Source: a virus. Taken from it: a stretch of 64,000 nt of DNA. Location of the stretch: positions 37,905 to 101,904 of the IMG/VR virus record IMGVR_UViG_3300027852_000033; one strand, 5' to 3'. Shown piece by piece: positions 21,044-55,200 of this stretch. Within the stretch, counting starts at the first letter, position 1, and each line of letters begins with the position of its first letter. Below the pieces are notes generated by a model. It worked only from the letters and a program-made list of their open reading frames with translations, was not told the origin of the DNA and searched no databases. Position numbers and translations under genes: made by a program.

Positions 21044-21052
21044 ATTCATGTA

Positions 21053-34045: not shown

Positions 34046-34069
34046 AAAAAACAGGAAGGAGAAAAGGAC

Positions 34070-34582
34070 ATGGGGAACGAACAAAATGTAGAGATTCAAG
34101 AATCAGATAATATTCAGGACAATCAGATATATGATATTGAACCAACAACTGACAGTGGGTTAACTACAGATCAAATAATATCTATAACTGATAAAGTTAA
34201 AGAGCAATATAAAAATAATAAAATATTCAGAATAATTGTACCATACATTGGTATCTATTTTATAAAAGCTCAGAACTATTCTGATGTATTAGAAGCTAAT
34301 CGGTTGGTTATGATATTTATAGACAGTAAAATAGAATCGGTTGGTGGGAATACTGAAATAGATAAATTACCTGATGAAAACAGGAATAAATTCATGAGAG
34401 AATTAGATGAAGAAATTAGTGATTTATCTAATAAAGAAACTCTCAAGAGATGTGTAGTATATCCTGATAATTTTCCGGAAAAAGTAGACGCGGGTAATAT
34501 AGAATCTGGTTTAATGTCTTTACTACTTGAAAAAATAATGGACATATCGGGATGGGTAGATCCGATAGTCGAAGAAATATAA
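34070..34582 (+). CDS. Putative tail assembly chaperone
   Basis: 170 aa acidic protein, AGGAG RBS; LKRCVVYP...SGLMSLLLEKIMDISGW; two genes upstream of the tape measure gene. Confidence 0.6.
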   Translation: MGNEQNVEIQESDNIQDNQIYDIEPTTDSGLTTDQIISITDKVKEQYKNNKIFRIIVPYIGIYFIKAQNYSDVLEANRLVMIFIDSKIESVGGNTEIDKLPDENRNKFMRELDEEISDLSNKETLKRCVVYPDNFPEKVDAGNIESGLMSLLLEKIMDISGWVDPIVEEI

Positions 34583-34591
34583 GGTATATCA

Positions 34592-35419: not shown

Positions 35420-35423
35420 TTTT

Positions 35424-38400: not shown

Positions 38401-41400
38401 ATATAGCCGAAGGTATAATGGATGCATCTAATGTAGGTATGATGTCAATGTTTCATGCCTTTAATAGAACCGCGTCTGAATTTCTCGGTATAGGCTTGGA
38501 TGAAACTCTTACTACTACCCCTAGAATGTATCTTAAAAAGATGTTCACAAAAAGAGTTGCACCAGTTATTGGAATATCTATGGCATACTCCGTAGTTAAC
38601 CGAATGGCAGATGAATATTTAGATGGCACAATATTTGGTGAGGGAATTGGGGTATTTGGAGCTAATATAATAGCAGGGGCTAGAGTAGCCGCTCAGGGTA
38701 TGTTAGATGTTACTGGTGGTACTGAAACTGCTGCTTATCTCGAAGATTTAATGCCTGGTTCTATAACTTCTCCATTATCTGGATTAGTGAGAGGAATAGG
38801 ACCTATGATAGGTGGGGTATTAGCAGGAGCTAGATTCGGTCCCAGGGCTGCAATTACTGGAGGAGGAATAGGTGGCGCAGTTGGTATGCTATTAGGCGGT
38901 GGTCCACTAGGGGTCTTTGGATTGCATGATATTTCTAAAAGCAGAAAACAGGTAGTAGAAGAACTTATAGGAGAAAGGGAAGTACCTATACGGAAAGCCA
39001 GATTTTGGGAGTTAGGTGCACAAGATTTTCATGGTGGGCGTGTCCAATATTTTCGGCCACATATGTATGCAATGTTAAGAAGTGACTATCAACATGCACC
39101 GGGCTATAAAGATTCTTTAATGACAGAAATGGTAGGAAGTGTAGCGCCTGACATTTATGCTATGAAAAATTACTATTCTCGGCCATACCCTGCTACCGCT
39201 GGTTTATTTTCAGATATTCCAGTATTTAGTAATATGATGCATATGATCCCTGGATCAGATATGGTTACTGGAACAGGAATATCAATGCACCAAGATGAAT
39301 TAGAAGTACCTATGGGGGCTGCATCAACCGGTTATTCTATGGGGCAGGCTGCACAAGCTGGGCTCGGAATAGACAGTATATCGGCCATGTATAAAGATAA
39401 ACAGGGATTATATGGTTTTGCAGAAGGAGGAGCAAATGCAGTTGGTGGAGGAGATATAAATACATTGTTAGCTCCTACCCCTATGGAAATGGGATCGGCA
39501 GAACATGCTATAGGAAATACTATAACTAATATGCAAGATATAGTAGGACTTCGTGGTTTTATAGGTAGTTCTATATTTGGTTCAATAACTGGCCGAAGTG
39601 AATTATTTGACTATGCTCCGGAACTTGCATCCCCTATAGACATAGCAGGTATAAGGCAATCCTACTGGGAGATGGAATTAGGGGGACTTGCGGGATTATG
39701 CCTAGCAGATAATACTCCTATAGAAACTCAAACCAAAGTAAAGAAAGCAGAGGATATTCTGGTAGGAGATAGTATATTATCAAAGGATGGGAAGTATAGA
39801 CCGGTAAAGCGTATATTCAAAAGAAAACTGGATGATAACAAACTTTATGATATCTCGTATAGTGGTATAAATCGTCCACTATCTATTAGCGGAAATCATA
39901 AATTACCCATATATAGAAATCAAAAATGTGTAAAAACAAATACCACATCATGTTGTAAATCTGATACTAAACATAAATGTATTGATTGTGCTTTCAATAT
40001 AAAAACAACTGATCCATTTACTAACTCAAAAATAATCGATATCCCGCCTCATACTGCCATAACCAATAACTATTATTACACTGCATGTAGACAAGAATTC
40101 GCAGAAGTATATGAATATATAGAAAACAATGGAACTGATGATATACCTTCAGATTACCCTAATCGGTTTTTCGGTTTCAAACCATATACTGATGTAGTGA
40201 GACATGTACTTGATCATATCAAAAGAGGCTGGGAAATTAAACGACATCCTTTAACCTGTAAACTATACGAGAAAAATACAGTTGATACCTTAAAAAAAGG
40301 AGATTATCTGCTGCGTGCTATCCCTGTAGTAAATAATTTTCCTAATATAGTAATAGATTTAGGAAAATATGTTCCAGATACTTATTGTATTACAGATAAC
40401 TATATATATAGAAAAGGACTAGATCCTAATTTTATAAAGGCCGTTGAATACTTTGAAAATAATCCGGATATGCTAAATAAATCAGTAAAAGAAATGTCTA
40501 TATTGTTAAATGTTAGTCCTATAAAGATTACGACTGCGCGTACTCATTTCATGTTAAAAAAGGAATCGAAAAGATGGAATAGATATCTTGAGATAAATGA
40601 GGATTTTGCATATTTTATAGGATGGTATCTTGCAGAAGGATATTCATCAGTTGGCAAGGAGATATGTCTTGCATTAAATAGTAATGAAATTGAATATGCT
40701 ACACATCTCAAGACTATCATAACTGGTATTCTAGGGGTTAATGTATATATAGACATAGATAATGAACACCATACCTTAGTACTTAGATTCAGCCATCCTC
40801 CCCTATCATATTTTCTTAAAGCTGAATTAGGTACATATTGTTATAATAAGCGTTTATCTTCTTATTTATGGACAAACAATAAAAGTACCATGCTCTCATA
40901 TATCAAGGGCTTATTCTTTGGCGATGGTACAATAACTAATACCAAGAATAATAAAGGTAATGGTTGTAGTCTCAAAACCACTTCAGAATCTCTTGCATTT
41001 TTATTTCATACTATATTATCAACATTTGGTATAGTAAGTACTATATTTATAGAATACCCTAAAGATCGTAGAGTTGTATATAAAATAGCAGTATATGGAT
41101 ATAACAATATTCTGTTTCGTAATCTATTTGGAATACCTATATCTACCCCTCCCAAAGATATTAGGCGATTAAAGAAGATAGGTAGTAAAGATGGCGTTTT
41201 TATTAAAGGTAATTACATACATTACCGTATATCGAATATAACAACAAAATATTATAATAGATGGGTATATGATTTTGAGGTAGAAAAAGTACACTATTAC
41301 CACTCTAATTTAATTTGTATATGCAATTCTGAAGTCATAAGGCGTTATGTGCCCCATTCTCGCAATCAAATCGATGTATTTAATCCACATGTTAATACCA

Positions 41401-43325
41401 TGCCTGATTGGTTATGTGGTTCAGAATATTATGTGGATTTTAGACACGGGGATCCTTTTGCCGCTGTCCCCATGGGAGAAGCTCGTTTGCCCGGGCCTAG
41501 TTACGAAAGTTTACATAATATAGATCTTTCCATGCCTTTAGAAGCTGATATATTAGGAGAAGAACTCGATTCTCAAATGGCATTTTATCTAGGATTACCA
41601 GAATATATGTCTCATAAAAATAGACTGATTGATATGGTAGAACCTGTTAAAAAAGATATAGAGTTGGCTGCCAGACGTTATGGGAGTATGGTAAAAGGCG
41701 AAACCCATTTGTATGAACCTTCTATAAATTTACATGCTCAAGCTGACGCTATAGTAAAAGATGCTAGTGGTGAGAAAGTTCCGATAAAAATTGTACCTAG
41801 AGGAATTGCAGGAGAAGCTTCCATAAATGCATTTATGGTATTAAGTGATGTAGAGAAGGGGCTACTTATAGAAGTAGATACTGAAACCGGCGATATAGCT
41901 CAACGAATAGTAAATAAAGATATTAGGCGGTTTCAAGCAGATATAGAACGAACAAAATCGGCAGCAGTAGCATCCTATGGTTCTATAAATCAGTTGGAAG
42001 AAGATGGCAAAGCTATGAATTTAGCTAATGCGTATTCATGGTTTGATCGTTTCAAAATCCTAGCAGATGTAGCCCAATATTCAGATAGTTATAAAGTAGC
42101 AGAAGCTATAGTAGACCAACAAATGGCTAGTGGTAGACTAAATGATAGGACGGCTGAATACCAGGTCATAAAGGACCAGATAAGAGAAAAGCAAAAGGCA
42201 CTTGATTTTGATGAATACAGATTTTCAAATATAGGAAAATCCATAACCGAATATGGAAAAGCAAAAGATGAATTTCATCAAGATAACTATAGTTATTTGG
42301 AGCAACAAATAGGTACGCTGTGGGAACGTGCATCGCATTTCAGATCGCCAGTTCATACAAAATTGCTTCATCAAAGTTCCGCCATGGAAGAATACGAAAG
42401 ATCAGTTATGTATGGAAAAGGTGTAAAACTTTGGGAGCAACCAGGTGAGGACTTTTTAGCTTCCTATTATCATCTCGCTAGAGGTGAAAAAGATCCACTA
42501 CAGGGATTTTCTTCATGGGGAGTAGGTGGATATTTATTAGGTGGCGGCCCGGTCGGTTTAGCTATGGGAGCAGCAGGGGCTGGGGTTTCAATGTGGAATC
42601 GCATGTCAGGTAGCACATATATACCTGACAGGGTAGCTCAGCGTCGAGATGTGATGGAACAAATGGATGCGGTAAAATATGCTAAATTCAAAAACCTATT
42701 TCAACAAACAGGGGATAGTGAATATCTTGATAAAGCTAATAGGACTATGACTAGCACTTCAATGCAAAATCAAATATTAAGCCCAATTTCTACTGCGTGG
42801 AATATAGGAGGACCGGATAAGTATTATATAGAGGATATAATAAATAATGTTACTACAGAGAATATAGATAGGGTACGAGACATGTTACCTGAAACTGCAG
42901 TGGCCTCATTGTATCAAGCTATGGGTGATGAAAAACTGGCTACTTTCACCATGGGAAAATTTGCAGAGCGCCAAATGGAAAGAGAGTTACCTGACATTAC
43001 ATCTACTGTATATTCTCCGGATGTCCCAATTGAGAGCCCACTTATTGAAACTTTGGAACAAAGAGGAGTAACCGCTCATGATGCAGGGGTAGGATGGTAT
43101 AGACAAATGGCTACTCTCCAAAGATCAAAACAATTAGGGATATATAAAGACCAAGACCTTTTATATCCGGATGCTTTTCAAGGTAGAGTAACAGTCAAAG
43201 ATTTTGATAATTCATTAACTGATACTGGCCAGTTGCGCAATTTATTATTACAATTTTCAACTAATGTTAGTATTATAGAAGATGGGCAAAGTAGAATAGA
43301 ACTTGAGATAGTAGGTAGGAGTTAA
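35424..43325 (+). CDS. Tape-measure-like / ejected protein precursor containing an intein (2090 aa after splicing)
   Basis: 2633 aa after the chaperone pair; basic helical N-terminus; Gly/Ala-rich hydrophobic segments (GGVLAGARFG...GGAVGMLLGGG; GGYLLGGGPVGLAMGAAGAG); intein; degenerate nuclease-like domain. Confidence 0.7.
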   Translation: MIGGILGFATSMVAWQATAMAVKEGAKWAASTARRSIVKYARYAESARNTRGTRTARHIFDRVSKVEPRLGSRNLTEQTIRTTTAAYRNRMSAAVRRRVLSKQTPKVRKALTVTGKAIGDEISVLPATYVMYRLEKHTAVSPEEKETTASFSKWYLGAPMAFSIGINAALRAKQKGTVKRTTMKVAKKYSRQTRSVVKTGMRGLKHISSEHKYNIADKAIALSRARRMTTENRGLLSLVGSRRPSDIYKHIKNHYKEELPRVKHLREHRLTAIDKQMDKLHETIVEMRAGKKYSTIEPAEKKQYSSETREVMRQVRSIGYQNYEKEVNKRSRILNFVNEVLENAGSTDLQIRRKTARRSTQSGTKDMPLDPSLYSYRGEDFDMGNLSMSSIKDSLIKRAGKGIPQFALSLFGQGDMINYLHSEHAMGSAFRIGRSGSRIYFPHALSSDPLQRESPSDIILSMMGTTASTATRAQRDTASQFLDTRYKLYMKEGMSRGAASNAMKVSANRGELWLAADDILLHSPGGKMGIISKNSKDNKPMFINMGGAPGGKMLDYLQFSSQTNSIGSKLYRNWLGSERYEYFDKIGKVNRHIQLGPTPIERIKDQVEVSGTMGGLRKVLKKFEIGYSQEQSIFSKVAGLMKKHGDPRYTGTLFSKDYLRSERWIDEMLKTDRSIEEFGNIIRGEAKDASDYFWHNMIRKAGGMKRMRPTFKKHSENLPVSMNEFLIYDDQTVSQAKANIDSLHDFLIDISTEKSDKRRLYSWLRDDIKEVKMMQRRFHDNDIPDQKLFDLLGDKFDTNSVTIAGRNRKPTAIDSYNATVFRITTAVMQSIPEEFVAHKFPKHISGEGYREQVTNALDQMFTDSVYNVTKQKERSAYEVSKRLGKVYQDISGSFSEIHPAISENDRAKIVGSIKSSVRHFIGDHTELKPDIDYVVDYHKSRKLKYSAAAPWNFDTRPKVGQPDYDEIFLMPKTWNTGPINKRQIKVGPDQTIDIAEGIMDASNVGMMSMFHAFNRTASEFLGIGLDETLTTTPRMYLKKMFTKRVAPVIGISMAYSVVNRMADEYLDGTIFGEGIGVFGANIIAGARVAAQGMLDVTGGTETAAYLEDLMPGSITSPLSGLVRGIGPMIGGVLAGARFGPRAAITGGGIGGAVGMLLGGGPLGVFGLHDISKSRKQVVEELIGEREVPIRKARFWELGAQDFHGGRVQYFRPHMYAMLRSDYQHAPGYKDSLMTEMVGSVAPDIYAMKNYYSRPYPATAGLFSDIPVFSNMMHMIPGSDMVTGTGISMHQDELEVPMGAASTGYSMGQAAQAGLGIDSISAMYKDKQGLYGFAEGGANAVGGGDINTLLAPTPMEMGSAEHAIGNTITNMQDIVGLRGFIGSSIFGSITGRSELFDYAPELASPIDIAGIRQSYWEMELGGLAGLCLADNTPIETQTKVKKAEDILVGDSILSKDGKYRPVKRIFKRKLDDNKLYDISYSGINRPLSISGNHKLPIYRNQKCVKTNTTSCCKSDTKHKCIDCAFNIKTTDPFTNSKIIDIPPHTAITNNYYYTACRQEFAEVYEYIENNGTDDIPSDYPNRFFGFKPYTDVVRHVLDHIKRGWEIKRHPLTCKLYEKNTVDTLKKGDYLLRAIPVVNNFPNIVIDLGKYVPDTYCITDNYIYRKGLDPNFIKAVEYFENNPDMLNKSVKEMSILLNVSPIKITTARTHFMLKKESKRWNRYLEINEDFAYFIGWYLAEGYSSVGKEICLALNSNEIEYATHLKTIITGILGVNVYIDIDNEHHTLVLRFSHPPLSYFLKAELGTYCYNKRLSSYLWTNNKSTMLSYIKGLFFGDGTITNTKNNKGNGCSLKTTSESLAFLFHTILSTFGIVSTIFIEYPKDRRVVYKIAVYGYNNILFRNLFGIPISTPPKDIRRLKKIGSKDGVFIKGNYIHYRISNITTKYYNRWVYDFEVEKVHYYHSNLICICNSEVIRRYVPHSRNQIDVFNPHVNTMPDWLCGSEYYVDFRHGDPFAAVPMGEARLPGPSYESLHNIDLSMPLEADILGEELDSQMAFYLGLPEYMSHKNRLIDMVEPVKKDIELAARRYGSMVKGETHLYEPSINLHAQADAIVKDASGEKVPIKIVPRGIAGEASINAFMVLSDVEKGLLIEVDTETGDIAQRIVNKDIRRFQADIERTKSAAVASYGSINQLEEDGKAMNLANAYSWFDRFKILADVAQYSDSYKVAEAIVDQQMASGRLNDRTAEYQVIKDQIREKQKALDFDEYRFSNIGKSITEYGKAKDEFHQDNYSYLEQQIGTLWERASHFRSPVHTKLLHQSSAMEEYERSVMYGKGVKLWEQPGEDFLASYYHLARGEKDPLQGFSSWGVGGYLLGGGPVGLAMGAAGAGVSMWNRMSGSTYIPDRVAQRRDVMEQMDAVKYAKFKNLFQQTGDSEYLDKANRTMTSTSMQNQILSPISTAWNIGGPDKYYIEDIINNVTTENIDRVRDMLPETAVASLYQAMGDEKLATFTMGKFAERQMERELPDITSTVYSPDVPIESPLIETLEQRGVTAHDAGVGWYRQMATLQRSKQLGIYKDQDLLYPDAFQGRVTVKDFDNSLTDTGQLRNLLLQFSTNVSIIEDGQSRIELEIVGRS
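39699..41327 (+). mobile_element. Intein (543 aa) with a LAGLIDADG homing endonuclease
   Basis: Block A CLADNTPI, block B ISGNHKLPI, LAGLIDADG motifs FIGWYLAEGY and YIKGLFFGDGT, block F VYDFEV, terminal ICN followed by Ser+1. Spliced junction GGLAGL/SEVIRRY. Confidence 0.92.
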
Positions 43326-43327
43326 AA

Positions 43328-46300
43328 TTGATATTTCGTGATCCGAGAAGAGACACAGTAGATACTTCAGTATCATATCTAAAAACTATGGGGGTACTTT
43401 CCGCTATAGCTTATGGTGGAGTTCGGCTTTCTACCTCATTCACATCTAGTTATAGAGATGCAAAAAGATTAGTGGCCTCCGCTAAATCTATACGTGAGGA
43501 CTGGGCGCAAGCTGCCAGATTATTCCCAGAAATTGAACCTGAAGAAATCAAGAAATTATTACCTAATCAAAGAATAGATCCTATAGTCCCAGCAGGTGTG
43601 CCTGATATTGATAGGATAATAGATACTGATGAATATAAAAGGTTATCACAAGATAACTTAATGTATAGTACTGATCAGGTAATAGAAGAAGAACAATGGG
43701 AGAAAAAAGCAGCAAAGCTACTTACAGATGATGATTTAATAAGAGATTATTCACTATATGAACCCCATGTACGCCAAGAACTGATAGACAAAGTGGATAC
43801 ACTAAATCAAAAAATGAGTCTAACCGGTTCGGAAACCCCATGGGAATTGTCAAAAAAGATGACAGAGGTAACTTCCGCGAAGAATACATTCCTAAAAGAA
43901 TATAGTACTTTACCTAGTATATTAACTGATAATGGAGTAAATATCGAAAAGATATCATCAGATGGTTCGGGATATACTATAAAAATAAAACATGCGGAAT
44001 CAGGTAAATTTGCTACCGTAAATTTACCATCTTATAAAGGAGGTATGATACAAAAAGGAGTAACCGATTGGTTGCCTACCCTAAGTGCCGAGATTGTTAC
44101 TGCGAAAGAACCAGGAGCATATTGGGATGTAGGACAAAAAATATTGGTACACCGGTCTTTCGGCAGTGAGTTACTAGAAGAGGCCCAAAAAATAATTGGC
44201 GCGCGATTTCACATGATAGAACCGGGGATGAATCCGGCACAAGTAGTTGCAAATTCCTTATCTAATGCAGTCGATTCTTTGTTATCAAGAGCAGAAGAAG
44301 CAGGGAGAGTATCTAAACTAGGAGGCATAACCTCTGATAGATTTATACTAAAAGAAGTACTTGAAGCAAAACAAAAACCAGGAACTAAATCAGCCAGAGC
44401 AATAAAATCAACATATGCACAGTTAGTAGAAGGTATCCCGGTAGTTACTCTATCTGTAGAGGGAGAATTAAAAGCAACTGGTAGAGAGATATCAATGGCT
44501 GGTATATCCGAAGCCGCATATGTAAAATCTGGCAAAATAGCTACTGCGCCGGTTATAGGTGCTTTTCCTTATACTCCATTAAATGCCCAATCCCATCTAA
44601 GACCAACTTATGCAAAGAAATTAGTGTCAGGAGAACAACTATCCGTTAATATGTTATCCAGAATATTAGGTCCTACCTCGACTGAAGTACTTGAAAAAAT
44701 ATCAAAAGAGATAGGGAGAGAAGCCATCCCGGGTAAGATGGTTAATATAGGATTCTGGCTTGATGAATTGTACGGGGTAGGAGAAGGTAGCGTAGCCATG
44801 GTAGTAGATACCAGAATAAAATTAGGCGAGAATATTGATCCCACTGCTAAATTTTCAACAAAACAAATAGAAAATATATTATCTGAACATGGGTTAAACC
44901 AAAGTCAGATAGATCAAGTATTTGATTCTACTACCTTAAAAACTAATAATGTATATAAAGGAGGAATAACTATAAATGATATTAAGGACAAAGTAAAGGA
45001 CAACAAATCCATAAAAAAAGAGATAAGGGATATGATAACTCTAGGCAGAAAAAGAGGGTCTACCATTTTAGATACTTTTTCAAGTGTTAACATGTCTATA
45101 ATAGATGTTAAAGAATTTACAAAAGATGAAGCGGGTAAAGCATTTATTCATCCTATTACTAAAGATCTTATACTTAATAAACTTGGCGGCGAGTTTGGCA
45201 AAGAAGGAGCAATAAGTAAGAGCTTACTAAAAGGAAACGAAGCTCCGGTTGTTATAAAAAAAGGACAACCCCTTGGTATAGACCCTGTAAGTAATGAAAT
45301 GAAATTTGCGGATAAGAATCTTAAATTAATACGGATGGAAGTAGATAACGGGCTTATTAGATTTATAGGAGCAGAAGATATACCTCTGGCCCCAGGTCGT
45401 ACTAAACTTAGCACTACAAAGGCCATAGTTAATAAAATAACAACAAGGGAAGAATTAGGCCAACTTATGTTATCCGAGGGGGTATTTGACAAAGAGGCAG
45501 CAAAGTTATATGCCAAGGGGCAAATACCTGGTGCCGCTAATATTATAATGTCCGCAAACCAAATGAAAAAATTACATGGTGGCGGTATAGACCTAGGAAT
45601 AATGAACAAGATGCTTGGGGATATTGCCAAGATGAAATCTATAGAAATAGAAACATGGATAAAACAGGGCAGGATATCTGAATCAGTGAGAGGGGCACAT
45701 ATTGATACACTCAAGAAGGGGCTTCGTGAGGTAATGGTATATATGATGGATAGAGACGGGGTTGATACCGTGCTCGATAAACTCGAAATAGACGCAGGTG
45801 GAGAATTATCTATTAAATTAAAAAATGGGATATCTACGGCACATGATAAGTTTAAAAAACTATCGATTATGGAGAGTCTTATTCTGAAATCACAAACTGG
45901 TAATCAAGCCGCTATTCAAGAATTACATAGAGTATCAGAGAATTTACAAAAGATGGTTAAATCTACTACTGGTGTTGATTATACAATGTCGGTTGGATTA
46001 AAGCAATATAATAAATTATTACAAAGCCCAGGCGATACAATAAAAAATATGCCAGTACTTGTATTTGGTGATAATGGAACCAACCTTAAGGGTGTATTTA
46101 CAAGGACTTTTGAAGCAACTCACCTTGTAAGTATAGATAATTTCACTAAATTTTCAGGAGAGGATAGAGGATTAAACGGTTTTAGTAGAGGACGAAGACA
46201 AGGTATGGATGACATGATAAATGCTCATGCATCCGGATTAAAACATCTTGAACATTATTATAGTGCCCAACTAGACTATAAGTTTCCATATATTTTAGAT

Positions 46301-49300
46301 AAATACGAGGCTGCTTCCGATTGGCTAAGTGATAAACAATTTTCTACAGGGAAAGGAGCGGATACTTATAAGTATAACAATGGACAATGGGTTAGTATAA
46401 CAACAGGCAGGGAAGCAATAGGAGTAGGAGCAACTGGTAAAAAGAAGATGGCAGTGCTTTCACTAAACGATATAAGAGGTATAAAAAACTTCGGTAACGA
46501 AGACTTTGTGACAAGGTTAGTAACTGAATATGAAAATACAAGTAATATATCGGCGGCTAGTAGATTTCGGATAGTAATGGATAATATGAAAGATATGGCA
46601 ATGTTTACAGATGATGCAGATATAGCCGATTTGATAAAAAACAATAACCTGAGTATAGAACAATTAACAAGTCATGGTATGCTAGGTGGTAGAGGAAATA
46701 GTGCCCTTATAGAATCTGAAGTTATGGAAGAGTTAATGAAAGTATTTAACTCTGTCCCGGATGATGCTGTATTGTATATGAAACTTCCCATGGAAGTAGA
46801 TATAAATGGTAAAAAAACAAGATATGTTCCAATGCATAAATTTGACAAATCTGATATTTTTGAATTAGCGGAACACCGTACAGGACCTGATCTTGCTACT
46901 ATAGACAGAGAAGTGATAGGATCATTTTTTACTGGATCTGATTTTGTAACTAACCAAGTAAATTATGTAAGACAGATAGCAAAGATTGAAGAAGAACTCA
47001 GATTACATGCTGGAAATGATACTGTTAAAAAAGAAGCTATGGCACAGCTTAGGGTAGCCACTGCCGATAAAAGTGCAGCCATTCGAGCATCATTTACTGG
47101 TAAACATTCTGCAGCAAATCGTAGATTAATAGAAAATTCTATACCTTTTACTATGCAAGGGAAAGTAATAAGCGCTGAAGGTATACCTTTTGGAGTCAGC
47201 GCTGTATCTGCAGATGATGCAGTGAAGTTTTTTACTGGTGGCGTTGTAGATTCTATGGATATGGCTACTAAATTGACTAATGAAATAGACACTGTAAATA
47301 TTTTGCAAGATAGTTTAAAAAAGGTAGCCAATGTTTTTGACCATGCAACTTCAGGTGAAGCTCTTGATAACTCATTAACTGAATTACTAGAAGGGCTTGC
47401 CGGTATAAAAAGCAAGGTATATACAAAAGATATAGGGAATTTAACCGATACTATTGTTCAATATTGGAATGCCTCCAGACAACAATCTATATTATCAAAA
47501 GAAAAAGTATTAACTATCCCTGGCTCAATTGTAAAAAGATTCCCTACCATATCAGATAGTGCAGGTAGTAAAACTACAAAAATTACACCCAATATATTAA
47601 CTAATATAAAAGATAAGTTAGGTACATATGTAACAAAACATACAACCAATATACAGGAAAGAATTGATGAACGAGCCAAAGTAATGGCCACTGGAAAAAT
47701 GGCTACTGATGTTTTAAAAGATCTCGGCATGGAGTGGTCTGAAGACAATATGTATATGAAATATCCTGGATTAAATTCTACAAAGTATTTTCCAGGTTCG
47801 AGAGTTGTTAGACCGAATCAATTTGTATCTACTAATATATTAGGATATCCCTTGTTATCCAGTGCAGCTACAAAAGATTTACAGTTATCAGTTATAAACG
47901 AGAAAGGAGTATCCCAAAAGCTTATGGAGGAACTCCCTGCTACTGCAGTAAAAGATATACATAAAATGCATAATGCTCCAATATATATTAATAGCATAAC
48001 TGCAGATTCTATGGCAAGAGACTTTGATGGCGATTTAGTATTTATGGAAAATAGAGCTCTTGATTACCTAGAAGATAAACGGTCTCAAATTGATAATACA
48101 ATATCGTTATCTAAATCATTAAATATGACCAGTGAAGATTTCAAAAACTTAAGTCATGAAAGTATGATAAATGGTATACAGGAGCGATTAGCTATAGTCG
48201 GACCAGATAACGAACTTCTTCCAGCTAATAGGCAGTCTATAAAAATGATGTATAGTATATCCGAGGGAGGATATCAAAATCGGATTGTAACGCGTAGTGT
48301 AACAGATGAAATAGATAGAATACTACAGGAATATAATATAAGTGGGACAGAAGCCACTCAAGTTAGGAAAAAAATATATAACAATATAAGAACGAGTACT
48401 ACAGGATTTCTTAATGTTGATCATGCCAACATACAAGATCTAATAAATATAGATATGGCAGTTGTATCTAGAATAAGTACACCTGATGAAACCGAAAGGG
48501 CAAGAGAAATAGCCAAAGAAAAACACAAAGCTAAGTCACTTTTAACAGAAGCGGGATCTGAACAGGAAATGCTCAAGCTTTATCCGGATACTGAATATAA
48601 CATATTAGTAGATAAACTTACTCCAGAAAAACGGATTATACATCAAGCAATGATAGATGATCTGAAATCTCAGTTACCGCAGTTAAGAAAAGAGATGCAA
48701 CTTACCCAGGTATCAAGTTTTATAAATATAAAGGAAGGTACTCCGCCATCTTATAAATTGAGAGCGGCAATAAGACATATATCTGCCAATTTTACAAATA
48801 ATGAAAGAGAGAAAGCATTTTTGGACCTTCTAGCTAGTGAAACAATAGCCCAAAAAACTATATCGTCAAAGCATGGTACCCCTGATGTATTAGATGATCT
48901 TCTTGATACATTTAGAAAACTATCAAATAAAAACATATCATTGGATGATAATATATTTGAAAAAGTGTCAAGATATAATTTTTCAGTAAACTTGGCCCCG
49001 GAAATATCAGAAGAGATGGAAGAATGGGGCATGAAACAACCTGGGGTTAAGGTAGATTATGATACATATGAAGATTATTTATCTAAGAAAAAAGAATATT
49101 TAACAAAGCTTACAGATGTTAATCATAATGCCGACCTTGAGATGGTAGCCGCCATAACCGAAGGTAAAAGTGATATAAGAACCCTTAAAAATACTAGAGT
49201 AAAACATATAGATGGCAAGATGCAAAACTATAAAATGGTAAATCGCGGGGGAGAAAGTAAAAAAATAGCTCTGAAATATTGGGGATATGGATCCGCATTA

Positions 49301-50230
49301 GCAGAGGAAAAGCTTACTGAAGTAGATACATGGATACAAAATGCAAAAAAACATAGAAGGAGTTCGATATTATATAAAACATTTTCTCGTGGTATGCCTG
49401 GTGCAGATCCGAATACTGTATGGGAAAATACTACCAGGGAAATAAAACCATACGTAAAGAAAATGACAAAATCATTTCGTGAATTTCATGAATTACATGG
49501 AACGACTATAATGGAAGATAGAGGATATGCGGCTATTACTAAGTTTAGCAACGATGGGGTTAGTACCCTTGATGTAATAAAAGATTTAGAGGAAAAATTA
49601 TCCAAGGGTGAATCTATCCAAACATCTAGTATGGGGGAAAAAAGAATAGCCGAATTTAGTGCATGGGTCAGAGGTGAACAAGATATACGAACTACTAATG
49701 TAGATTATACTGATCGAATGAATAATCTTGTAAATTTGCATAATCGGGAGAAAAAAGATCTTATAAAATTAAGAGCAGAAAGGATAGCTCAGGAATCAAC
49801 AGTATTTAGGGCCGGATCAGTATTCGATGCAATAACCGAAGGAACCATAAAGCATACTGCATCTGCTGCAGATGACCAATTAATAAGATCAGCAGGGAAG
49901 TTACGAATTGGTACTATTCTTGCAGGGCTATTGACAGGAGTAATTGCTGGACAAACGGTGAATCAGATTACAAAAGGTTATGCAGTTCCTGATTTAGAAA
50001 AAACTGCGGGACTTGGAGGGGAGTATTATGAAGATAGTAGTGGTATAATGGGTAGAGAAATGGAAATTATGCTTAAACCAAGGCCTGCTAAAATAGTGTC
50101 ACAATATCAAGATGGCATGGGGGTATCAGGTGCAGCAAGGCATATCCATGATATGTTTACGGTATTATCCCCTAAACCGCAGGGCCAGGGGGAATATCGT
50201 TCTAAATATAGAGGCGTGGTAGTCGGATGA
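43328..50230 (+). CDS. Putative single-chain two-barrel (beta plus beta'-like) RNA polymerase, probably virion-associated
   Basis: TTG start with AGGAG RBS. Collinear motifs: PLAPGRTKLSTTKAIVNKI (aa ~686-704), GRRQGMDDMINAHASG (~955), TGKHSAANRRL (~1257), IYINSITADSMARDFDGD (DFDGD aa 1565-1569, nt 48020-48034), ETIAQKTISSKH (1838-1849). Confidence 0.8.
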   Translation: MIFRDPRRDTVDTSVSYLKTMGVLSAIAYGGVRLSTSFTSSYRDAKRLVASAKSIREDWAQAARLFPEIEPEEIKKLLPNQRIDPIVPAGVPDIDRIIDTDEYKRLSQDNLMYSTDQVIEEEQWEKKAAKLLTDDDLIRDYSLYEPHVRQELIDKVDTLNQKMSLTGSETPWELSKKMTEVTSAKNTFLKEYSTLPSILTDNGVNIEKISSDGSGYTIKIKHAESGKFATVNLPSYKGGMIQKGVTDWLPTLSAEIVTAKEPGAYWDVGQKILVHRSFGSELLEEAQKIIGARFHMIEPGMNPAQVVANSLSNAVDSLLSRAEEAGRVSKLGGITSDRFILKEVLEAKQKPGTKSARAIKSTYAQLVEGIPVVTLSVEGELKATGREISMAGISEAAYVKSGKIATAPVIGAFPYTPLNAQSHLRPTYAKKLVSGEQLSVNMLSRILGPTSTEVLEKISKEIGREAIPGKMVNIGFWLDELYGVGEGSVAMVVDTRIKLGENIDPTAKFSTKQIENILSEHGLNQSQIDQVFDSTTLKTNNVYKGGITINDIKDKVKDNKSIKKEIRDMITLGRKRGSTILDTFSSVNMSIIDVKEFTKDEAGKAFIHPITKDLILNKLGGEFGKEGAISKSLLKGNEAPVVIKKGQPLGIDPVSNEMKFADKNLKLIRMEVDNGLIRFIGAEDIPLAPGRTKLSTTKAIVNKITTREELGQLMLSEGVFDKEAAKLYAKGQIPGAANIIMSANQMKKLHGGGIDLGIMNKMLGDIAKMKSIEIETWIKQGRISESVRGAHIDTLKKGLREVMVYMMDRDGVDTVLDKLEIDAGGELSIKLKNGISTAHDKFKKLSIMESLILKSQTGNQAAIQELHRVSENLQKMVKSTTGVDYTMSVGLKQYNKLLQSPGDTIKNMPVLVFGDNGTNLKGVFTRTFEATHLVSIDNFTKFSGEDRGLNGFSRGRRQGMDDMINAHASGLKHLEHYYSAQLDYKFPYILDKYEAASDWLSDKQFSTGKGADTYKYNNGQWVSITTGREAIGVGATGKKKMAVLSLNDIRGIKNFGNEDFVTRLVTEYENTSNISAASRFRIVMDNMKDMAMFTDDADIADLIKNNNLSIEQLTSHGMLGGRGNSALIESEVMEELMKVFNSVPDDAVLYMKLPMEVDINGKKTRYVPMHKFDKSDIFELAEHRTGPDLATIDREVIGSFFTGSDFVTNQVNYVRQIAKIEEELRLHAGNDTVKKEAMAQLRVATADKSAAIRASFTGKHSAANRRLIENSIPFTMQGKVISAEGIPFGVSAVSADDAVKFFTGGVVDSMDMATKLTNEIDTVNILQDSLKKVANVFDHATSGEALDNSLTELLEGLAGIKSKVYTKDIGNLTDTIVQYWNASRQQSILSKEKVLTIPGSIVKRFPTISDSAGSKTTKITPNILTNIKDKLGTYVTKHTTNIQERIDERAKVMATGKMATDVLKDLGMEWSEDNMYMKYPGLNSTKYFPGSRVVRPNQFVSTNILGYPLLSSAATKDLQLSVINEKGVSQKLMEELPATAVKDIHKMHNAPIYINSITADSMARDFDGDLVFMENRALDYLEDKRSQIDNTISLSKSLNMTSEDFKNLSHESMINGIQERLAIVGPDNELLPANRQSIKMMYSISEGGYQNRIVTRSVTDEIDRILQEYNISGTEATQVRKKIYNNIRTSTTGFLNVDHANIQDLINIDMAVVSRISTPDETERAREIAKEKHKAKSLLTEAGSEQEMLKLYPDTEYNILVDKLTPEKRIIHQAMIDDLKSQLPQLRKEMQLTQVSSFINIKEGTPPSYKLRAAIRHISANFTNNEREKAFLDLLASETIAQKTISSKHGTPDVLDDLLDTFRKLSNKNISLDDNIFEKVSRYNFSVNLAPEISEEMEEWGMKQPGVKVDYDTYEDYLSKKKEYLTKLTDVNHNADLEMVAAITEGKSDIRTLKNTRVKHIDGKMQNYKMVNRGGESKKIALKYWGYGSALAEEKLTEVDTWIQNAKKHRRSSILYKTFSRGMPGADPNTVWENTTREIKPYVKKMTKSFREFHELHGTTIMEDRGYAAITKFSNDGVSTLDVIKDLEEKLSKGESIQTSSMGEKRIAEFSAWVRGEQDIRTTNVDYTDRMNNLVNLHNREKKDLIKLRAERIAQESTVFRAGSVFDAITEGTIKHTASAADDQLIRSAGKLRIGTILAGLLTGVIAGQTVNQITKGYAVPDLEKTAGLGGEYYEDSSGIMGREMEIMLKPRPAKIVSQYQDGMGVSGAARHIHDMFTVLSPKPQGQGEYRSKYRGVVVG

Positions 50231-50367
50231 GAATAACAATAACTGTTGATATGGTAAATCAAGATACTGTAAATAAAATAATTCAAGCTATACGAGAAAT
50301 AACAGATCAGGAAGTTAATACCCGGATAGTTGATAGTCCGACTCTTCCTTTTTCTACAGAAATGTGA
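50227..50367 (+). CDS. Small 46-aa protein coupled to the RNAP-like gene (absent from the ORF track)
   Basis: ATGA overlap with the stop at 50228-50230; MRITITVDMVNQDTVNKIIQAIREITDQEVNTRIVDSPTLPFSTEM; fills the gap to the next RBS. Confidence 0.55.
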   Translation: MRITITVDMVNQDTVNKIIQAIREITDQEVNTRIVDSPTLPFSTEM

Positions 50368-50374
50368 GGTTTTA

Positions 50375-52282
50375 TTGTCAATTGCTAACGAACATAGAGA
50401 ATACATACAAAGGATGGCAAATCCTAATTCAGAAGAAGCACTAATCCAAGTAGGTAATATATGGTATGGCGCCGATGGATATACGACACTATCTGGACTA
50501 TATTATTTTACCAACAAAAATATAGTGCCAATACCAGGACTCAGAGTAGAATCGGCTATATCTATGTCTAATTCTTATTCACCTATAGATAGTATCCAAA
50601 TTGAGTTAGTTGTAAATTATTTACGGTTTAAATCACACATACAAAAACTATTTGCACTTGCACAATGTTGTGTAATTATTCCAATAATGAACCCCCTAGT
50701 TGCGGCATTGCTCCAACCAATGCAACAGAATAAAAAAATATATATTGCCTATGGGATTGATCAAACCGCGTTAGATTGGAGCAGTAAATATGATAGTCCT
50801 GCTTCTGTCCTATTAGCATATGCATCTACTCCAATTATGGTAAAGATAGATAGTATTCATTTAGAATCTATAGCAAATCATCCTAGGGAACTAAGAGTAG
50901 TGATGAAAGTAACTAAGGTACTAACAACTACTACTTATGGTGATAAAACCTTATATATAAAAACAATAGATGGCGCTATAGAACAGTCAAAAATAATGGA
51001 CAAAATATCCAGTCAAAAATCAGATACCCCCCAGGTTGATGCTATGGCTAGAATGTTTGGAGTAAGTGTACCTAAAATAAGAGAAATGATGAAAAATATG
51101 AGCGGCGAACGATATACTCCTACTGTTTCTTCCAAGGATATATATATGAAGAAATTAAAGAAAGTACTTGCCGGTGATATATTTGAATATATAGCCGAGG
51201 GTCAATCTACAGTAGGTAGAGGAAGTATATTTGGTATAGATGCACCTATAAATAAAGAACATATAAATGAATACAAATTGTCGAAAAAATATAAGGAACA
51301 AATACCAGGAGGAGATAAATCCAAACTGGCTCTTGAGGCGTGGATAAAATCTGCGCTCAAAGATAAACATAGAATAAAAATGATAGATGAGGGACATGAA
51401 AATTATAAACTAACTAGTCCGAAGGGTAAAATATCTAAACGATACCAACTATTAATAGAATCCAAAGATGGGATAGTTATAGATATTGGAGAACAACTAA
51501 TAAAATCAGGATATGCTTATCCTACCAAAGAACTTATAGAACATACCAGTCATCCTCTTCATAACACATATATGGAGGCTTGGTCAGGTGAATCTACATC
51601 AAAAGATACTATAGAAATGCGTAAGGATATTTTACCAGGGTATTCCCCAGCTATGTCAAGTTATACCAAAATATACACTCTTCAAAATATCAAAGTTGAT
51701 AATCCTGAATATACTCCATATATGCAATCTAATAATATATATCAACTCATTACTCCAACTGAATATAGAAGAATTATTAAGAAATCATTTGTTGGAATAA
51801 CAACTATAGAATCTGAACCCCGTAAGGACGTTACTCTTGTTAGCATAACTGATGGGGATACTTTAATTGTAGATTACAATGGAGAAATATTGACTGCAAG
51901 ATTGTTAGGGATAGATACTCCAGAAACAGTAGATGGAAAAAAAGGAAGGAAGGACGCGGCAAATATTGGAGTTAGTATCGAAACGATAATTATGTGGGGA
52001 AATATGGCAACTGATTTTGTTAAAAGTCAAATTAGTCCAGGGGATTCATTAATTCTTAGATTCGGGCAAAAAGCAAAACGTGACACATATAACCGATTAT
52101 TATCATTTGTATATTTACCGGATGAAAGAATGCTAAATAGAATGATAATCCAGGAAGGGTACGCTGCTCCCCTTCCAGCCGATGTAACTCCCAAATACAA
52201 CAAAGAGTTTAATGATTTATATAAAGAGGCAGCAAAAGATAACAAGGGAATTTGGGAATACTGGGTTAATTTTCGCCCATAG
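50375..52282 (+). CDS. Virion protein with two thermonuclease (SNase) domains
   Basis: Probable TTG start 50375 after GAGGT. Intact C-terminal SNase (ITDGDTL, RLLGIDTPE, DTYNRLLSFVY, QEGYA, KGIW) preceded by a degenerate copy (LAGDIF, SIFGIDAP, LIKSGYA). Confidence 0.85.
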   Translation: MSIANEHREYIQRMANPNSEEALIQVGNIWYGADGYTTLSGLYYFTNKNIVPIPGLRVESAISMSNSYSPIDSIQIELVVNYLRFKSHIQKLFALAQCCVIIPIMNPLVAALLQPMQQNKKIYIAYGIDQTALDWSSKYDSPASVLLAYASTPIMVKIDSIHLESIANHPRELRVVMKVTKVLTTTTYGDKTLYIKTIDGAIEQSKIMDKISSQKSDTPQVDAMARMFGVSVPKIREMMKNMSGERYTPTVSSKDIYMKKLKKVLAGDIFEYIAEGQSTVGRGSIFGIDAPINKEHINEYKLSKKYKEQIPGGDKSKLALEAWIKSALKDKHRIKMIDEGHENYKLTSPKGKISKRYQLLIESKDGIVIDIGEQLIKSGYAYPTKELIEHTSHPLHNTYMEAWSGESTSKDTIEMRKDILPGYSPAMSSYTKIYTLQNIKVDNPEYTPYMQSNNIYQLITPTEYRRIIKKSFVGITTIESEPRKDVTLVSITDGDTLIVDYNGEILTARLLGIDTPETVDGKKGRKDAANIGVSIETIIMWGNMATDFVKSQISPGDSLILRFGQKAKRDTYNRLLSFVYLPDERMLNRMIIQEGYAAPLPADVTPKYNKEFNDLYKEAAKDNKGIWEYWVNFRP

Positions 52283-52297
52283 TAAACGGAGAGCATT

Positions 52298-55200
52298 TTG
52301 GCTACAATCAAAAACAAAGATAGAAATAACGCTAAATTATTGATAGATGATTTTTTGTCAGATACTACTGATCCAAAAATAGATAGTGGTGGCATTGAAC
52401 TAACTGATAATATATGTGAGTGTGAACCTTTATCAAATATGATAGATAGTATAATTGATAACACTGCAGATAATAAACTATCAGCAAGTTTCCCTTTTGA
52501 AAGATATACGAAATTTGATCACAACAAACTCGATCATGATTTTCAAATATCAGTAAGGTACAAAGATCGAAAATCTGTAGGGGAATCTATAAAAAAATAT
52601 AGCCCTGTATTTTCAGTGGCTAACTATTTACATAGCCCACATAAACTTATATTATCTGCTATTCTTAACGATGTGTTAAATGAAGATACTATATTTGGAC
52701 GAACATATCGCTCTATCCCCCCAAAAGTTAGCGATGTATTACAATGGCTACATACCGAAACTCTCAAGATTATTCCTATATTAAGAGAACTACATACTGA
52801 TAAGATTATCAAAATGATAGATGGTAAATCTGATAATAATAGTTTATATAATTTGTTACAAAAAGTACAAGCAAGTGAAAAAAATAACCCCGATAGTATA
52901 AGAGTAGATGTAAAACTCGACACTACCAAGTTATTCGTAAATCCAGGCATAGGGTCTGCTGGAGTGCGGCAAAATATTATAGATGAATTATTAAAATATC
53001 TTAACCCGCCTGTTAAATATGTATGGGGAGAACCACCAGAAGGAAACCCAGGTAAAGGAATAAAAGACGGATGTGATTGCTCGGGGCTATCTTATTATTT
53101 ATATCATAAGTATGCACGTATGGAGATTCCAAGAACTGCAAGGGATCAACATAGCAGTAGTACAAAAATAACCCAACAAAGTACTTTACCTGGGGATATT
53201 ATATTTTTAGATACTACAGGAATATCTGATAATAATACTATACCCAAAACCCTTAAAGTAACCCATTTGGGTATAGTAACATCAGCGGGTTGTAAATCAT
53301 TTATTCATGCTGCCGGTCGCCCAGTATATAATAATAATATAGTATCCGGAAATACCGGACAGTTGAAATATGATACCCAAGTATCATGGTGGAAAGGTAG
53401 AATAGTAGGGTATGGTCGGTTTCTAAGTGAGGAATCCTCTTTACCTGTATCTACTGTTACTCCTATTGATAGCGCAGGTTTTCCAGATAATTTAGATGAA
53501 TCTAGTATTAGTACAATGAATTTTAGTATATCCGGAAATACAAGTACAGGTAAATCATTAGAAACCGATATAAAACAATTATTAAGTAAATTAGATACAG
53601 AAATTAAACAAGTATCTGTAGATATATATAGACGGGCATTAACAAAAGTATATAAAAGCTTTGTAAACGATTTAACTGCAAAGGTAGAATATATCAGTGT
53701 TAATTACGCCCCAGGTACAAGTGCATATATACCCATAGCTGGGGAATTTGCTCCGGTAGTACAATCAACTGGTGGCAAAATTATTCAGGCATCAATCAGA
53801 CTTAAAGAGGTTAAAGCAGTAGATGTTGCTAGATTATCTACAATGTTTAATATATCTAGTAGTGATGATACTATAATATCTATGTTAATGACCGCCAGGA
53901 GTATTTTCAAGGGAGGTGGAGATACAACTAATCGCATAAAGTATCTTATGTTATACGCTGAAGAGAAAAAGATGGAGGAAATAATTAATGAACTCCAGGG
54001 AGTTTCACATCTTGCCAGATTTGATGAACCAGTTAGAATAACTAATGATATATTGAATTCACTAGGATTAGAAACTTTCACCCCTGTATCTATGGAATTA
54101 AAAACCAATGAGACAATAGCTGGAGCATATGATATTTCTATTGTATTTAATTATATAAACCTTGGACAGAGAGTAACCGAATCGTTAAAGAAATTAAAGG
54201 GCGGGATTCAAGCGCCCATCATTCCTATAGCTTGTAGGCTTAGTAAATCCCCTATAGATATTAATGAGCTAGGCGATAGTTCAATTGATGATACAAAATT
54301 TTCATTCCTTCATTCAATAAGCACCGCTAGTATACATCATGGTTTATCAGAGTTATTACCATTATATGTAATTACCAGAATAAACGATATGATATGCAAT
54401 ATATTAGCTATAATAGAGGACAAAAAAATAAGAGGCGAGCCACTCACTATAAATTCTACTGACCTTGAAGAATCACTTATGTTGTGGTCTAGGAAAAGTA
54501 AGGCGAAGGAATGGATAAGAAAGAATGAAAAACTACGACAACAAGAATATGATAATGGAAATGTGGGGAAAGAATATCCTTATGGTACTAAAGTAACTGA
54601 TACCGCATCTATCGGGGCCAGTAAATGGGCGAAACATGGATCAGAGGCTTTACTCGGAGCGCCGGCTATAGGAGTTGCGCTATCTACAATGAAATTAACT
54701 AAAAAACTATCTGGGGGTTCCGCATCCTTTTCAAAATGGTCAAAGCTTTTTTATGCATGTACTCAAGTAGGTTCAGTAATATTTTCTACTATTCTTGGAA
54801 CCTCGTCTAATATAGATAATCCATTTGCAACAAATTCTAAAGGTACACAACCAAAGATGTTATTTTTTAATATATTAACATATATTCCATATATGATAAC
54901 TGATATTATGAGAGAATACGCATATGCCATATGTGAAAATAGAACAGATAGTTTCATTTCAGGTATAGCACAAGATGCTCTTGATTTTTTCACAAAAACT
55001 AAAGTACTAACCGAAGGGAATGAAGAATTACCGGCAAGAATGTATAAATTTCCAGAGGATATAACTATAATAGATTATGATAATAAAGAATATAGTCTTG
55101 GTGGAATTGTAGTTTCCATGTATAGTTCAGGAGTTAACGCTAAAATTAAAACTGATATTTCTATTCCATTTACAAATCGTACTTTGCTTACAACAGAGGA

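Follow-up and report, generated by a model that had tools for sequence, protein, structure and literature searches.

The window analysed here, the final 64 kb (positions 37,905 to 101,904) of the 101,904-bp IMG/VR virus record IMGVR_UViG_3300027852_000033, carries a gene (P0001; 43328–50230, + strand) whose 2,300-residue product we regard with high confidence as an RNA polymerase (RNAP). The initial annotation of this DNA had proposed a divergent single-polypeptide RNAP with two barrels, belonging to an uncharacterised lineage, and the predicted fold, blind fold searches and the conservation of catalytic residues all bear this proposal out. That the protein is an active enzyme is quite probable. 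The fuller reading, in which a single-chain, DNA-dependent RNAP with two double-psi β-barrels (DPBBs) is packaged, is ejected and starts phage transcription, with a YonO-like enzyme acting next, is fairly probable.

The record is estimated to be 75% complete, which puts the phage genome at ~135 kb (101.9 kb of it in the record). Among public sequencing runs the sequence was found in one only, a DNA run from a marine metagenome, possibly the source sample itself; no RNA run was listed. The polymerase gene runs for 2,300 uninterrupted codons from a TTG start located 2 bases past the stop of an upstream 2,633-codon gene. A GGAG Shine–Dalgarno sequence lies ~6 nt 5′ of the TTG, inside the 3′ end of the upstream gene, so that translation of the two genes is coupled. 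The N-terminus of P0002, a 68%-identical homologue, also reads M-IFRDPRR and supports this start. All full-length relatives likewise have a single uninterrupted open reading frame (ORF), such that β and β′ do not reside on separate polypeptides. Each of the motifs that had been quoted as RNAP-like was located at its cited residue in the translation. The main parts of the gene are as follows.

43328..50230 (+): candidate single-chain β/β′-like RNAP, 2,300 residues (open frame, Shine–Dalgarno sequence, homologue N-terminus, ~21 full-length relatives)
44525..46327 (+): β-like half, residues ~400–1000, holding the second barrel, DPBB-B (Foldseek, VIA-align)
46328..48082 (+): part resembling the N-terminal region of β′, residues ~1000–1585, ending in the candidate catalytic loop (VIA-align)
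47147..48058 (+): double-psi β-barrel A, residues 1274–1577 (48,161-chain search)
47243..47722 (+): four-helix-bundle insertion in barrel A, residues ~1306–1465, ~160 residues of variable sequence

The predicted fold joins a β-like and a β′-like half

An AlphaFold2 model of residues 400–1599, built on the family alignment, had a mean predicted local distance difference test score (pLDDT) of 74.1 and a predicted template modelling score (pTM) of 0.66. The fold was compared with known structures by Foldseek against the PDB, by re-alignment with VIA-align and by a Foldseek-independent search of 48,161 representative chains. Almost all of the PDB matches listed by Foldseek are RNAP second-largest subunits (E 2.6e-4 to 1e-2, probability mostly 0.9–1.0). 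These matches span 400–630 columns and include bacterial β, Pol III and vaccinia subunit B, plastid β and the AR9 non-virion RNAP (nvRNAP).

Re-alignment of residues 400–1000 with VIA-align gave Z scores of 12–12.8 against E. coli β 548–1342 (354–388 residues aligned), 12.6 against the phiKZ nvRNAP β-C-like subunit (8que_C, 369 aligned) and 12.4 against AR9 7s01_C; 7s00_C was also matched, and phiKZ 7ogp_C was recovered at Z 12.0 in the search of 48,161 chains. Residues ~1000–1585 aligned with the N-terminal ~18–640 residues of Rpb1, A190, C160 and archaeal A′ (Z 11.4–12.9, 217–246 aligned), and Pol II, Pol I and archaeal A′ were retrieved at Z 11.4–11.7 by the Foldseek-independent search. Within this second half, residues 1274–1577 superimpose on the N-domain of CDC48 (9uw1_A; Z 12.9, rmsd (root mean square deviation) 1.6 Å over 83 residues) and on a designed DPBB (7dww_A; Z 11.5, 82 of 86 residues), with VAT-N and PEX1-N also matched. 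The DFDGD sequence is positioned at the C-terminal end of this predicted barrel, the same place as in β′. The ~160-residue insertion matches only generic helical bundles (Z 11–12.4), which is unspecific.

A pair of DPBBs, the feature on which the claim had been staked beforehand, is therefore present in the model. As in the two-barrel superfamily, the two predicted DPBB domains would form one catalytic cleft and barrel A carries a DxDxD loop, with invariant Asp residues at the end of the predicted barrel. Solved single-chain RNAPs cover both barrels in one superposition: P23-45 gp96 (8h2n_A, Z 9.4, 202 residues; 8h2m_A, Z 9.2), QDE-1 (Z 8.9, 237 aligned) and P74-26 gp62 (Z 8.6, 198), all in the 48,161-chain search. 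These joint superpositions indicate that the predicted arrangement of the barrels is polymerase-like. The similarity to β and β′ reaches well past the barrels (Z 12–12.9), compared with Z ~9 for the single-chain families, a gap in the predicted model that is suggestive, not decisive, of kinship with the multisubunit type.

The BFVD database was also searched with the model of residues 400–1599. Its two best matches were A0A8S5SD80 and A0A7R7G2L5 (E 2.2e-8 and 3.6e-7, over 1,100 columns), the former labelled “Minor tail protein” of Siphoviridae sp. ctnpt50. Poxvirus, mimivirus and other giant-virus RNAP subunits came next, and a giant protein of Microcystis phage LMM01 was among the matches at low probability. 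Judged by these model-to-model matches, A0A8S5SD80, A0A7R7G2L5 and the LMM01 protein are probably further unannotated single-chain polymerases, suggesting that similar hidden polymerases already reside in UniProt under structural names.

Conservation of the candidate catalytic residues

When 1.84 billion representative proteins were scanned with HMMER, using residues 660–1859 as the query, 24 matches were returned, ~21 of them full-length. The full-length relatives are 2,000–2,300 residues long and share 23–31% identity across the matched stretches. All are metagenomic, with no annotation beyond “hypothetical”, on contigs of up to 218 kb; marine and activated-sludge samples, at least, contain the family. 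A word-index search found a single homologue, 68% identical, and there were no matches in 50,697 GenBank phage records (tblastn with three family members), in IMG/VR contigs (peptide patterns and a back-translated AQNTISSKHGTP pattern) or in GTDB prokaryote genomes. The GTDB result leaves no prophage copy and no clue to the host. An ESM Atlas search with residues 400–1900 produced only sub-threshold leads, among them an RNA-dependent RNA polymerase (RdRP; score 0.82, rank 6), and no description of such a family was found in the literature searched.

Alignment of 22 sequences (18–25% identical to the query, except for the close homologue P0002 at 68%) left only 32 invariant columns. These include R425, G487, K693, K698, P1273, P1508, D1565, D1567, D1569, K1802, Q1842, K1848 and G1850; K1259 and H1849 are conserved in at least 90% of the sequences. 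The motifs that contain the residues outside the bridge-helix and trigger-loop candidates lie at the following positions.

44600..44602 (+): R425 in NAQSHLRP, family consensus KQSxxRxN; invariant in the 22 sequences
45404..45421 (+): K693 and K698 (KLSTTK), two lysines in the loop that connects two predicted strands; both invariant in the 22 sequences
47099..47164 (+): GKxS...PF(S/T)xxG motif with K1259 and P1273
47843..47860 (+): G-Y-P1508-L-L-S, counterpart of RxPxLH without the Arg; P1508 invariant
48020..48034 (+): DFDGD at the end of barrel A, a candidate catalytic loop for Mg binding; all three Asp residues invariant

Conservation of the DFDGD aspartates, of K693/K698 and of H1849 had been singled out as a check on the initial annotation: the aspartates and lysines proved invariant, and H1849 reached the 90% level. 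Family members differ at the fourth position of DFDGD, which makes RDFDxD the loop consensus; P0002 has DMDGD. By conservation and predicted loop position, K693 and K698 would correspond to the two conserved barrel-B lysines, K1065 and K1073 of β. R425 may lie near the β motif NMQRQAVP, judging from aligned ranges that place model residue 7 on β 662. At the proline motif the family consensus is G-x-P1508-(E/L)-L-S. Not every proposed landmark held: GQIPGAANIIMSAN, which had been paired with an RNAP motif, is poorly conserved across the family alignment. Overall, the invariant columns largely coincide with residues that had been picked as RNAP landmarks before any fold model existed, and chance is no explanation for this agreement.

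Candidate bridge helix and trigger loop

A second model, of residues 1180–2150, was of lower quality (pLDDT 70.7, pTM 0.52). In Foldseek its matches had E values of 0.03–0.2, and all those of high probability (0.8–0.99) are β′ or Rpb1 chains; VIA-align placed its residues 28–655 on E. coli β′ 262–490 with Z 8.5–8.9. Downstream of the catalytic loop, two segments are of interest.

48674..48793 (+): candidate bridge helix, a predicted 40-residue helix (residues 1783–1822) with invariant K1802 in IKxxTPxAY
48803..48925 (+): candidate trigger loop, a helical hairpin (residues 1826–1866) with the tip AQxTISSKHGTP

The helix was assigned by DSSP on the second model, where local pLDDT is ~75–85. The hairpin tip contains the invariant Q1842, K1848 and G1850 together with H1849, and its Q-to-H spacing equals that of E. 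coli. Residues 1801–1850 form the second most conserved 50-residue stretch of the protein. From their order and conservation in the model, the two segments would resemble a bridge helix followed by a trigger loop. The wide fold search with the second model was dominated by the four-helix-bundle insertion and was uninformative on both.

Protein termini

43328..44524 (+): N-terminal ~400 residues, with a conserved DPR(R) start and a weak hydrophobic segment at residues ~20–40 (alignment, hydropathy)
49775..50230 (+): C-terminal module, residues 2150–2300, with a Gly-rich hydrophobic helix at residues 2189–2212 (nt 49892–49963)

Hydrophobic segments had been claimed at both termini. In a Kyte-Doolittle test of eight family members with a cut-off of 1.3, the C-terminal segment (residues 2189–2212) scored at least 1.3 in all eight, but the N-terminal one fell below the cut-off in seven, so that only the C-terminal half of the claim stands. 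Past the helix, the module continues with GY(A/P)VPDL..GLGGEYYE..GRE.E..P.P and ends in KGVxVR in the family (RGVVVG here). Nowhere is the family better conserved than in the C-terminal ~110 residues, which surpass even the region of the catalytic loop and have no known counterpart. One might speculate that the module serves as a membrane-insertion or virion-anchoring element.

The polymerase gene lies in a block of structural genes

The neighbouring structural genes include those for a capsid protein, a tail sheath (PHROG E 1e-10) and a Baseplate_J/baseplate wedge protein; the upstream part of the genome encodes a large terminase and a protein with a weak Mu-type portal match (E 7.7e-4, below the Pfam cut-off). 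The sheath and baseplate genes confirm that the phage is contractile-tailed. Its nearest cultured phages are distant, the terminase being at most 26% identical to those of large Moorella, Acinetobacter and Bacillus phages. Three giant or enzyme-bearing genes flank the polymerase.

35424..43325 (+): upstream partner of 2,633 residues, a Gly-rich hydrophobic giant in the tape-measure position, containing an intein and coupled to the polymerase gene
50330..52282 (+): downstream partner of 650 residues with a C-terminal staphylococcal-nuclease domain (Pfam SNase, E 2.3e-17)
52298..60964 (+): downstream giant tail protein of 2,888 residues with an NlpC/P60 domain at residues 240–338 (Pfam, E 3.8e-10)

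The polymerase had been described as part of a tail operon, adjoining the tape measure gene. The structural gene block is indeed there, but the tape-measure identity is positional only: by position and composition the upstream giant is the best candidate, no profile confirms it as a tape measure and tblastn of the giant against the 50,697 GenBank phage records gave no match. The 2,888-residue protein matches the PHROG “minor tail protein” and is syntenic in the relatives. The 650-residue protein may be delivered in the particle.

The arrangement recurs in five related loci, whose polymerases are 24–56% identical to a query based on P0006 and 23–28% identical to the protein of the window. The gene order consists of the C-terminal part of a 1,672-residue protein, a 170-residue and a 275-residue protein, a Gly-rich giant of ~2,100 residues, the polymerase, a 650-residue-type protein, a tail protein of ~2,700 residues and a 320-residue protein. 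In the block as a whole, baseplate genes come after the giant NlpC/P60 tail protein. It is complete in three loci (L004, L005 and L006), where homologues of the upstream giant (~2,095–2,105 residues) precede the polymerase gene; the other two (L008 and L009) start within the upstream giant gene and retain C-terminal fragments of its product. The nuclease-domain gene is directly 3′ of the polymerase gene in all five. The upstream giant and polymerase genes are in different frames in the window, and their frame relation varies among the relatives, which argues for separate polypeptides and not a read-through fusion. The giant proteins of the module have no terminal motifs in common, and no enrichment of sigma-70-like promoters or intrinsic terminators was found within 34000–53000.

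Several further features of this region were observed. The 2,633-residue giant is split after ELGGLAGL by a 543-residue intein (window 39699–41327; Cys1426...Asn1968, with Ser at +1) that has Hint and LAGLIDADG homing-endonuclease domains and Cys, not His, as its penultimate residue; the homologues of the giant in three related loci lack the intein. In L009 the counterpart of the 2,888-residue protein is split into ORFs of 1,702 and 932 residues. A gene for a TnpB/IS-type transposase (27764–28999, +; PHROG 506, E 1e-124) sits between the structural-module genes for proteins of 992 and 1,672 residues, its start overlapping the 3′ end of the preceding gene. Just after the sheath gene, 13310–14005 and 14168–15538 (+) both match PHROG 9206 “major head protein” (E 3e-33 and 1e-22); their position favours tail-tube-type paralogues over head proteins.

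An 800-bp gap upstream of the gene for a 1,274-residue protein contains four ~40-nt elements (20458–21044, read on the minus strand). In every copy the box RATAAGAKAWTAWT comes first, followed by a stem of 6–7 bp with a 3-nt loop and by an AT-rich tail; stem sequences differ from copy to copy. No further copy of the full element, with the box 7 nt before the stem, was found in the 101.9 kb; three looser matches combining TAAGA with a hairpin are not members. The four elements may be promoters for a phage polymerase or origin iterons. Hairpin promoters of such a kind are used by the N4 virion RNAP (vRNAP).

A probable second polymerase in the same genome

An 852-residue protein, P0026 (G000:C1:12187-14745 (-)), is encoded 23 kb upstream of the window and carries SIARHP...GGDFDGDLISMV. 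No Pfam, PHROG or PDB sequence match was obtained for it. However, 25 of its 30 nearest ESM Atlas clusters carry the PF05183 RdRP domain of the YonO/QDE-1 family (score 0.96), and P0026 is probably a YonO-like non-virion RNAP. It has only the DFDGD stretch in common with the giant polymerase (hhalign, 23 columns). The phage would thus possess two different two-barrel polymerases, one encoded in the structural block and the other among non-structural genes. A two-polymerase arrangement is likewise found in phiKZ-like phages (PMC13282480) and in P23-45 (PMC10770324).

A model for delivery and its alternatives

In the mechanism that we favour, the β-like half (residues ~400–1000, with the barrel containing K693/K698) would be joined directly to the β′-like half (residues ~1000–1900), the latter comprising a barrel with the Mg-binding D1565-x-D1567-x-D1569 loop at its end, then the candidate bridge helix and trigger loop. 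The polymerase would be produced late, alongside the structural proteins, and assembled into the particle, the conserved C-terminal hydrophobic module acting as an anchor or membrane contact. Expelled with the DNA via the contractile tail, it would transcribe the first phage genes without the host polymerase, and the 852-residue YonO/RdRP-like polymerase would take over afterwards, a relay with parallels in phiKZ-like phages and Thermus phage P23-45. Gene position, conserved synteny and the one C-terminal hydrophobic helix are the grounds for proposing virion packaging and ejection; a particle-borne early transcriptase is moderately probable. The catalytic activity and the division of labour between the two polymerases are likewise our inference. 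The nuclease and cell-wall hydrolase domains encoded next door could, speculatively, fit a cassette of delivered enzymes.

Our most specific proposal is more tentative, falling a little short of an even chance: that the protein represents an undescribed lineage of vRNAPs, fused from a multisubunit β/β′ type of the branch to which the jumbo-phage enzymes also belong, and combined with a contractile-tail ejection cassette and a relay to a YonO-like enzyme. If so, the cassette would comprise a polymerase, a membrane-active giant, a nuclease and a cell-wall hydrolase, and a mid-sized (~135 kb) marine myovirus would have fully host-independent transcription.

A number of observations weigh against the polymerase reading. 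The alignment behind the models is shallow (22–23 rows). Pfam returned no RNAP family for P0001, nor for any of the 22 family members at E ≤ 1, and P0001 had no PHROGs match; PF05183, the RdRP family, was equally absent from the Pfam results for the 2,300-residue protein. Neither phmmer nor a profile hmmsearch found a match in the PDB. In hhalign the family profile gave no significant alignment to E. coli rpoB (E 0.36) or rpoC (E 0.018), the best, non-significant alignment to E. coli β′ (323–403; E 0.018) containing GKHSAANRRLIENSIPFTMQGK in the pairing proposed by the initial annotation. As none of the sequence or profile methods connects the family with RNAPs, the assignment rests on predicted structure, and a fold is assigned only between the N-terminal ~400 and the C-terminal ~350 residues. 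The bridge helix and trigger loop, which had also been claimed, are supported by conservation and secondary-structure prediction, but neither candidate is covered by a structural alignment to any RNAP.

Residue-level departures point the same way. The lysine spacing is K-x4-K, compared with K-x7-K in E. coli. In YGVGEGS, which had been likened to the YNFEDS motif of β, G487 is invariant, but neither the acidic residue of YGVGEGS nor the acidic pair of the β motif is conserved in the family. RFPTI (1404) and KYPGL (1478), offered as candidates for RxPxL, are not conserved and lie in or just after the variable, partly helical insertion; upstream of DFDGD the Arg of RxPxLH is absent from the family altogether. 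Finally, a folded polymerase of this size is unable to pass a tail tube. Delivery would hence require either unfolding or a location in the capsid.

Four other explanations were considered. In the first, which we judge unlikely, the protein is an active single-chain RNAP but not a virion component, working inside the cell, where it might transcribe middle or late genes or prime replication. The presence of a second polymerase means that roles could be split otherwise, and there is only one, marginal, hydrophobic helix. However, the gene is coupled to giant tail- or ejection-type proteins and its order among them is conserved in five related loci. Moreover, an enzyme first made with the late proteins would have little to transcribe unless carried to the next cell, and the precedents, phiKZ vRNAP, crAss gp66, P23-45 gp96 and N4 vRNAP, are all particle-borne.

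Less likely again is an RNAP-derived pseudo-enzyme that serves as a bulky component of the tail or inner body or as a DNA-binding ejection chaperone. The missing RxP Arg, the missing conserved acidic pair of the β barrel, the altered Lys spacing and the 160-residue insertion in barrel A would all suit such a protein, as would the “minor tail protein” annotation of the best BFVD look-alike. That annotation is automatic, however, and a pseudo-enzyme would be expected to have lost its catalytic residues, whereas what stays invariant in this family at ~20% identity is precisely the catalytic set: three Asp, two Lys and the trigger-loop-like His, Lys and Gln.

We consider it very unlikely that the protein is a two-barrel polymerase of another specificity, either a QDE-1-like RdRP or a PolD-like DNA polymerase. 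QDE-1 does superimpose over both barrels (Z 8.9, 237 residues), the ESM Atlas gave its weak RdRP lead (0.82, rank 6), and gp66 and QDE-1-type enzymes favour single-stranded templates. Yet DNA-dependent β and β′ chains of the multisubunit type give the matches of highest score and greatest length (Z 12–12.9, up to 388 residues), and it is not obvious what a double-stranded DNA phage would do with an RdRP. No PolD chain is among the matches listed, an absence that counts as no evidence.

The last possibility, that structure prediction from so shallow an alignment produced a spurious fold and that a giant tail protein carries the motifs by coincidence, draws on the 22–23 alignment rows, the mean pLDDT values of 74 and 71 and the missing sequence-level link to RNAPs, but is barely credible given that the two halves independently match the right RNAP subunits in the right order (β, then β′), that a Foldseek-independent search agrees, that DxDxD falls at the end of a predicted DPBB as in β′ and that the invariant residues are catalytic landmarks predicted before any fold model.

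Comparison with known phage polymerases

In the predicted model, the folds nearest to the giant polymerase would be those of the multisubunit β/β′ type, including phiKZ and AR9, with phi14:2 gp66, YonO and P23-45 gp96 further off. By the tests applied, the protein falls outside every described family and shows no detectable relationship with gp66 or YonO.

The jumbo-phage RNAPs (phiKZ vRNAP and nvRNAP and AR9 nvRNAP; 7OGP/8QUE and 7S00/7S01) are likewise phage-encoded, divergent enzymes of the β/β′ type, without homologues of alpha, omega or sigma, as here. Among the structural matches, their subunits for the C-terminal half of β rank with the best (Z 10.9–12.6, ~365 residues); no sequence similarity was detected. 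A particle-borne polymerase and a non-virion one likewise occur together in phiKZ-like phages (PMC13282480). However, in phiKZ and AR9 β and β′ are split over four or five polypeptides, in contrast to the one 2,300-residue chain here. The phiKZ vRNAP is a component of the inner capsid of phages larger than 200 kb, whereas the gene described here belongs to the tail/baseplate block of a phage of ~135 kb, and the partner polymerase is YonO-like here but a second multisubunit enzyme in the phiKZ-like phages.

P23-45 gp96 is a vRNAP fused to the tape measure, found together with the non-virion gp64 (Chaban et al. 2024, PMC10770324; PDB 8H2M/8H2N). It shares with our protein the single-chain two-barrel design, DFDGD, the tape-measure locus of a tailed phage, invisibility to sequence searches and the pairing with a second, smaller two-barrel RNAP. 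Its fold covers both barrels of the large model with Z 9.2–9.4 over ~200 residues, weaker than the multisubunit-type matches, though the size of the model hampers a fair comparison domain by domain. In addition, gp96 is fused to the tape measure, while the polymerase of the present, contractile-tailed phage has an ORF of its own, in another frame. The survey of Chaban et al. used [RK]xP...DxDxD as a search filter (PMC10770324, Supplementary Data 4 description), and the family of the window lacks the [RK]xP that this filter requires.

The crAss-like phi14:2 gp66 (6VR4; bioRxiv 10.1101/2020.03.07.982082), at 2,180 residues, is similarly a single chain with a β-like barrel before the DFDxD barrel and large domains of unassigned fold, and it is particle-borne. 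Unlike the protein of the window, it is a QDE-1-type enzyme of a podovirus lineage with DFDID and a self-inhibited active site; Foldseek matched 6vr4_A to the second model with a probability of only 0.09, and there was no sequence match. SPbeta YonO and the other PF05183 RdRP-type enzymes are also minimal two-barrel, single-chain phage RNAPs, yet in this genome the YonO-like protein is the product of the other gene, P0026. The N4 vRNAP of the Schitoviridae (~3,500 residues) is a functional analogue, being ejected with the DNA to transcribe the early genes (PMC13434306). It has, however, a T7-like right-hand fold unrelated to the two-barrel enzymes, and N4 is a podovirus.

To our knowledge, particle-borne two-barrel RNAPs have been documented experimentally in only three groups: phiKZ-like jumbo phages, crAss-like podoviruses and the P23-45 Thermus siphoviruses. 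The family described here would add a contractile-tailed, non-jumbo marine lineage to them. As it escapes Pfam, PHROGs, PDB profiles and the [RK]xP...DxDxD filter, host-independent early transcription may be commoner among uncultured phages than annotation suggests. A compact one-chain β/β′ enzyme would be of use for studies of the minimal RNAP core, and its pairing with a YonO-like enzyme bears on the evolution of two-polymerase relays. The predicted architecture, a one-chain β/β′ polymerase encoded by a separate gene beside a gene in the tape-measure position, would mix features of all three groups.

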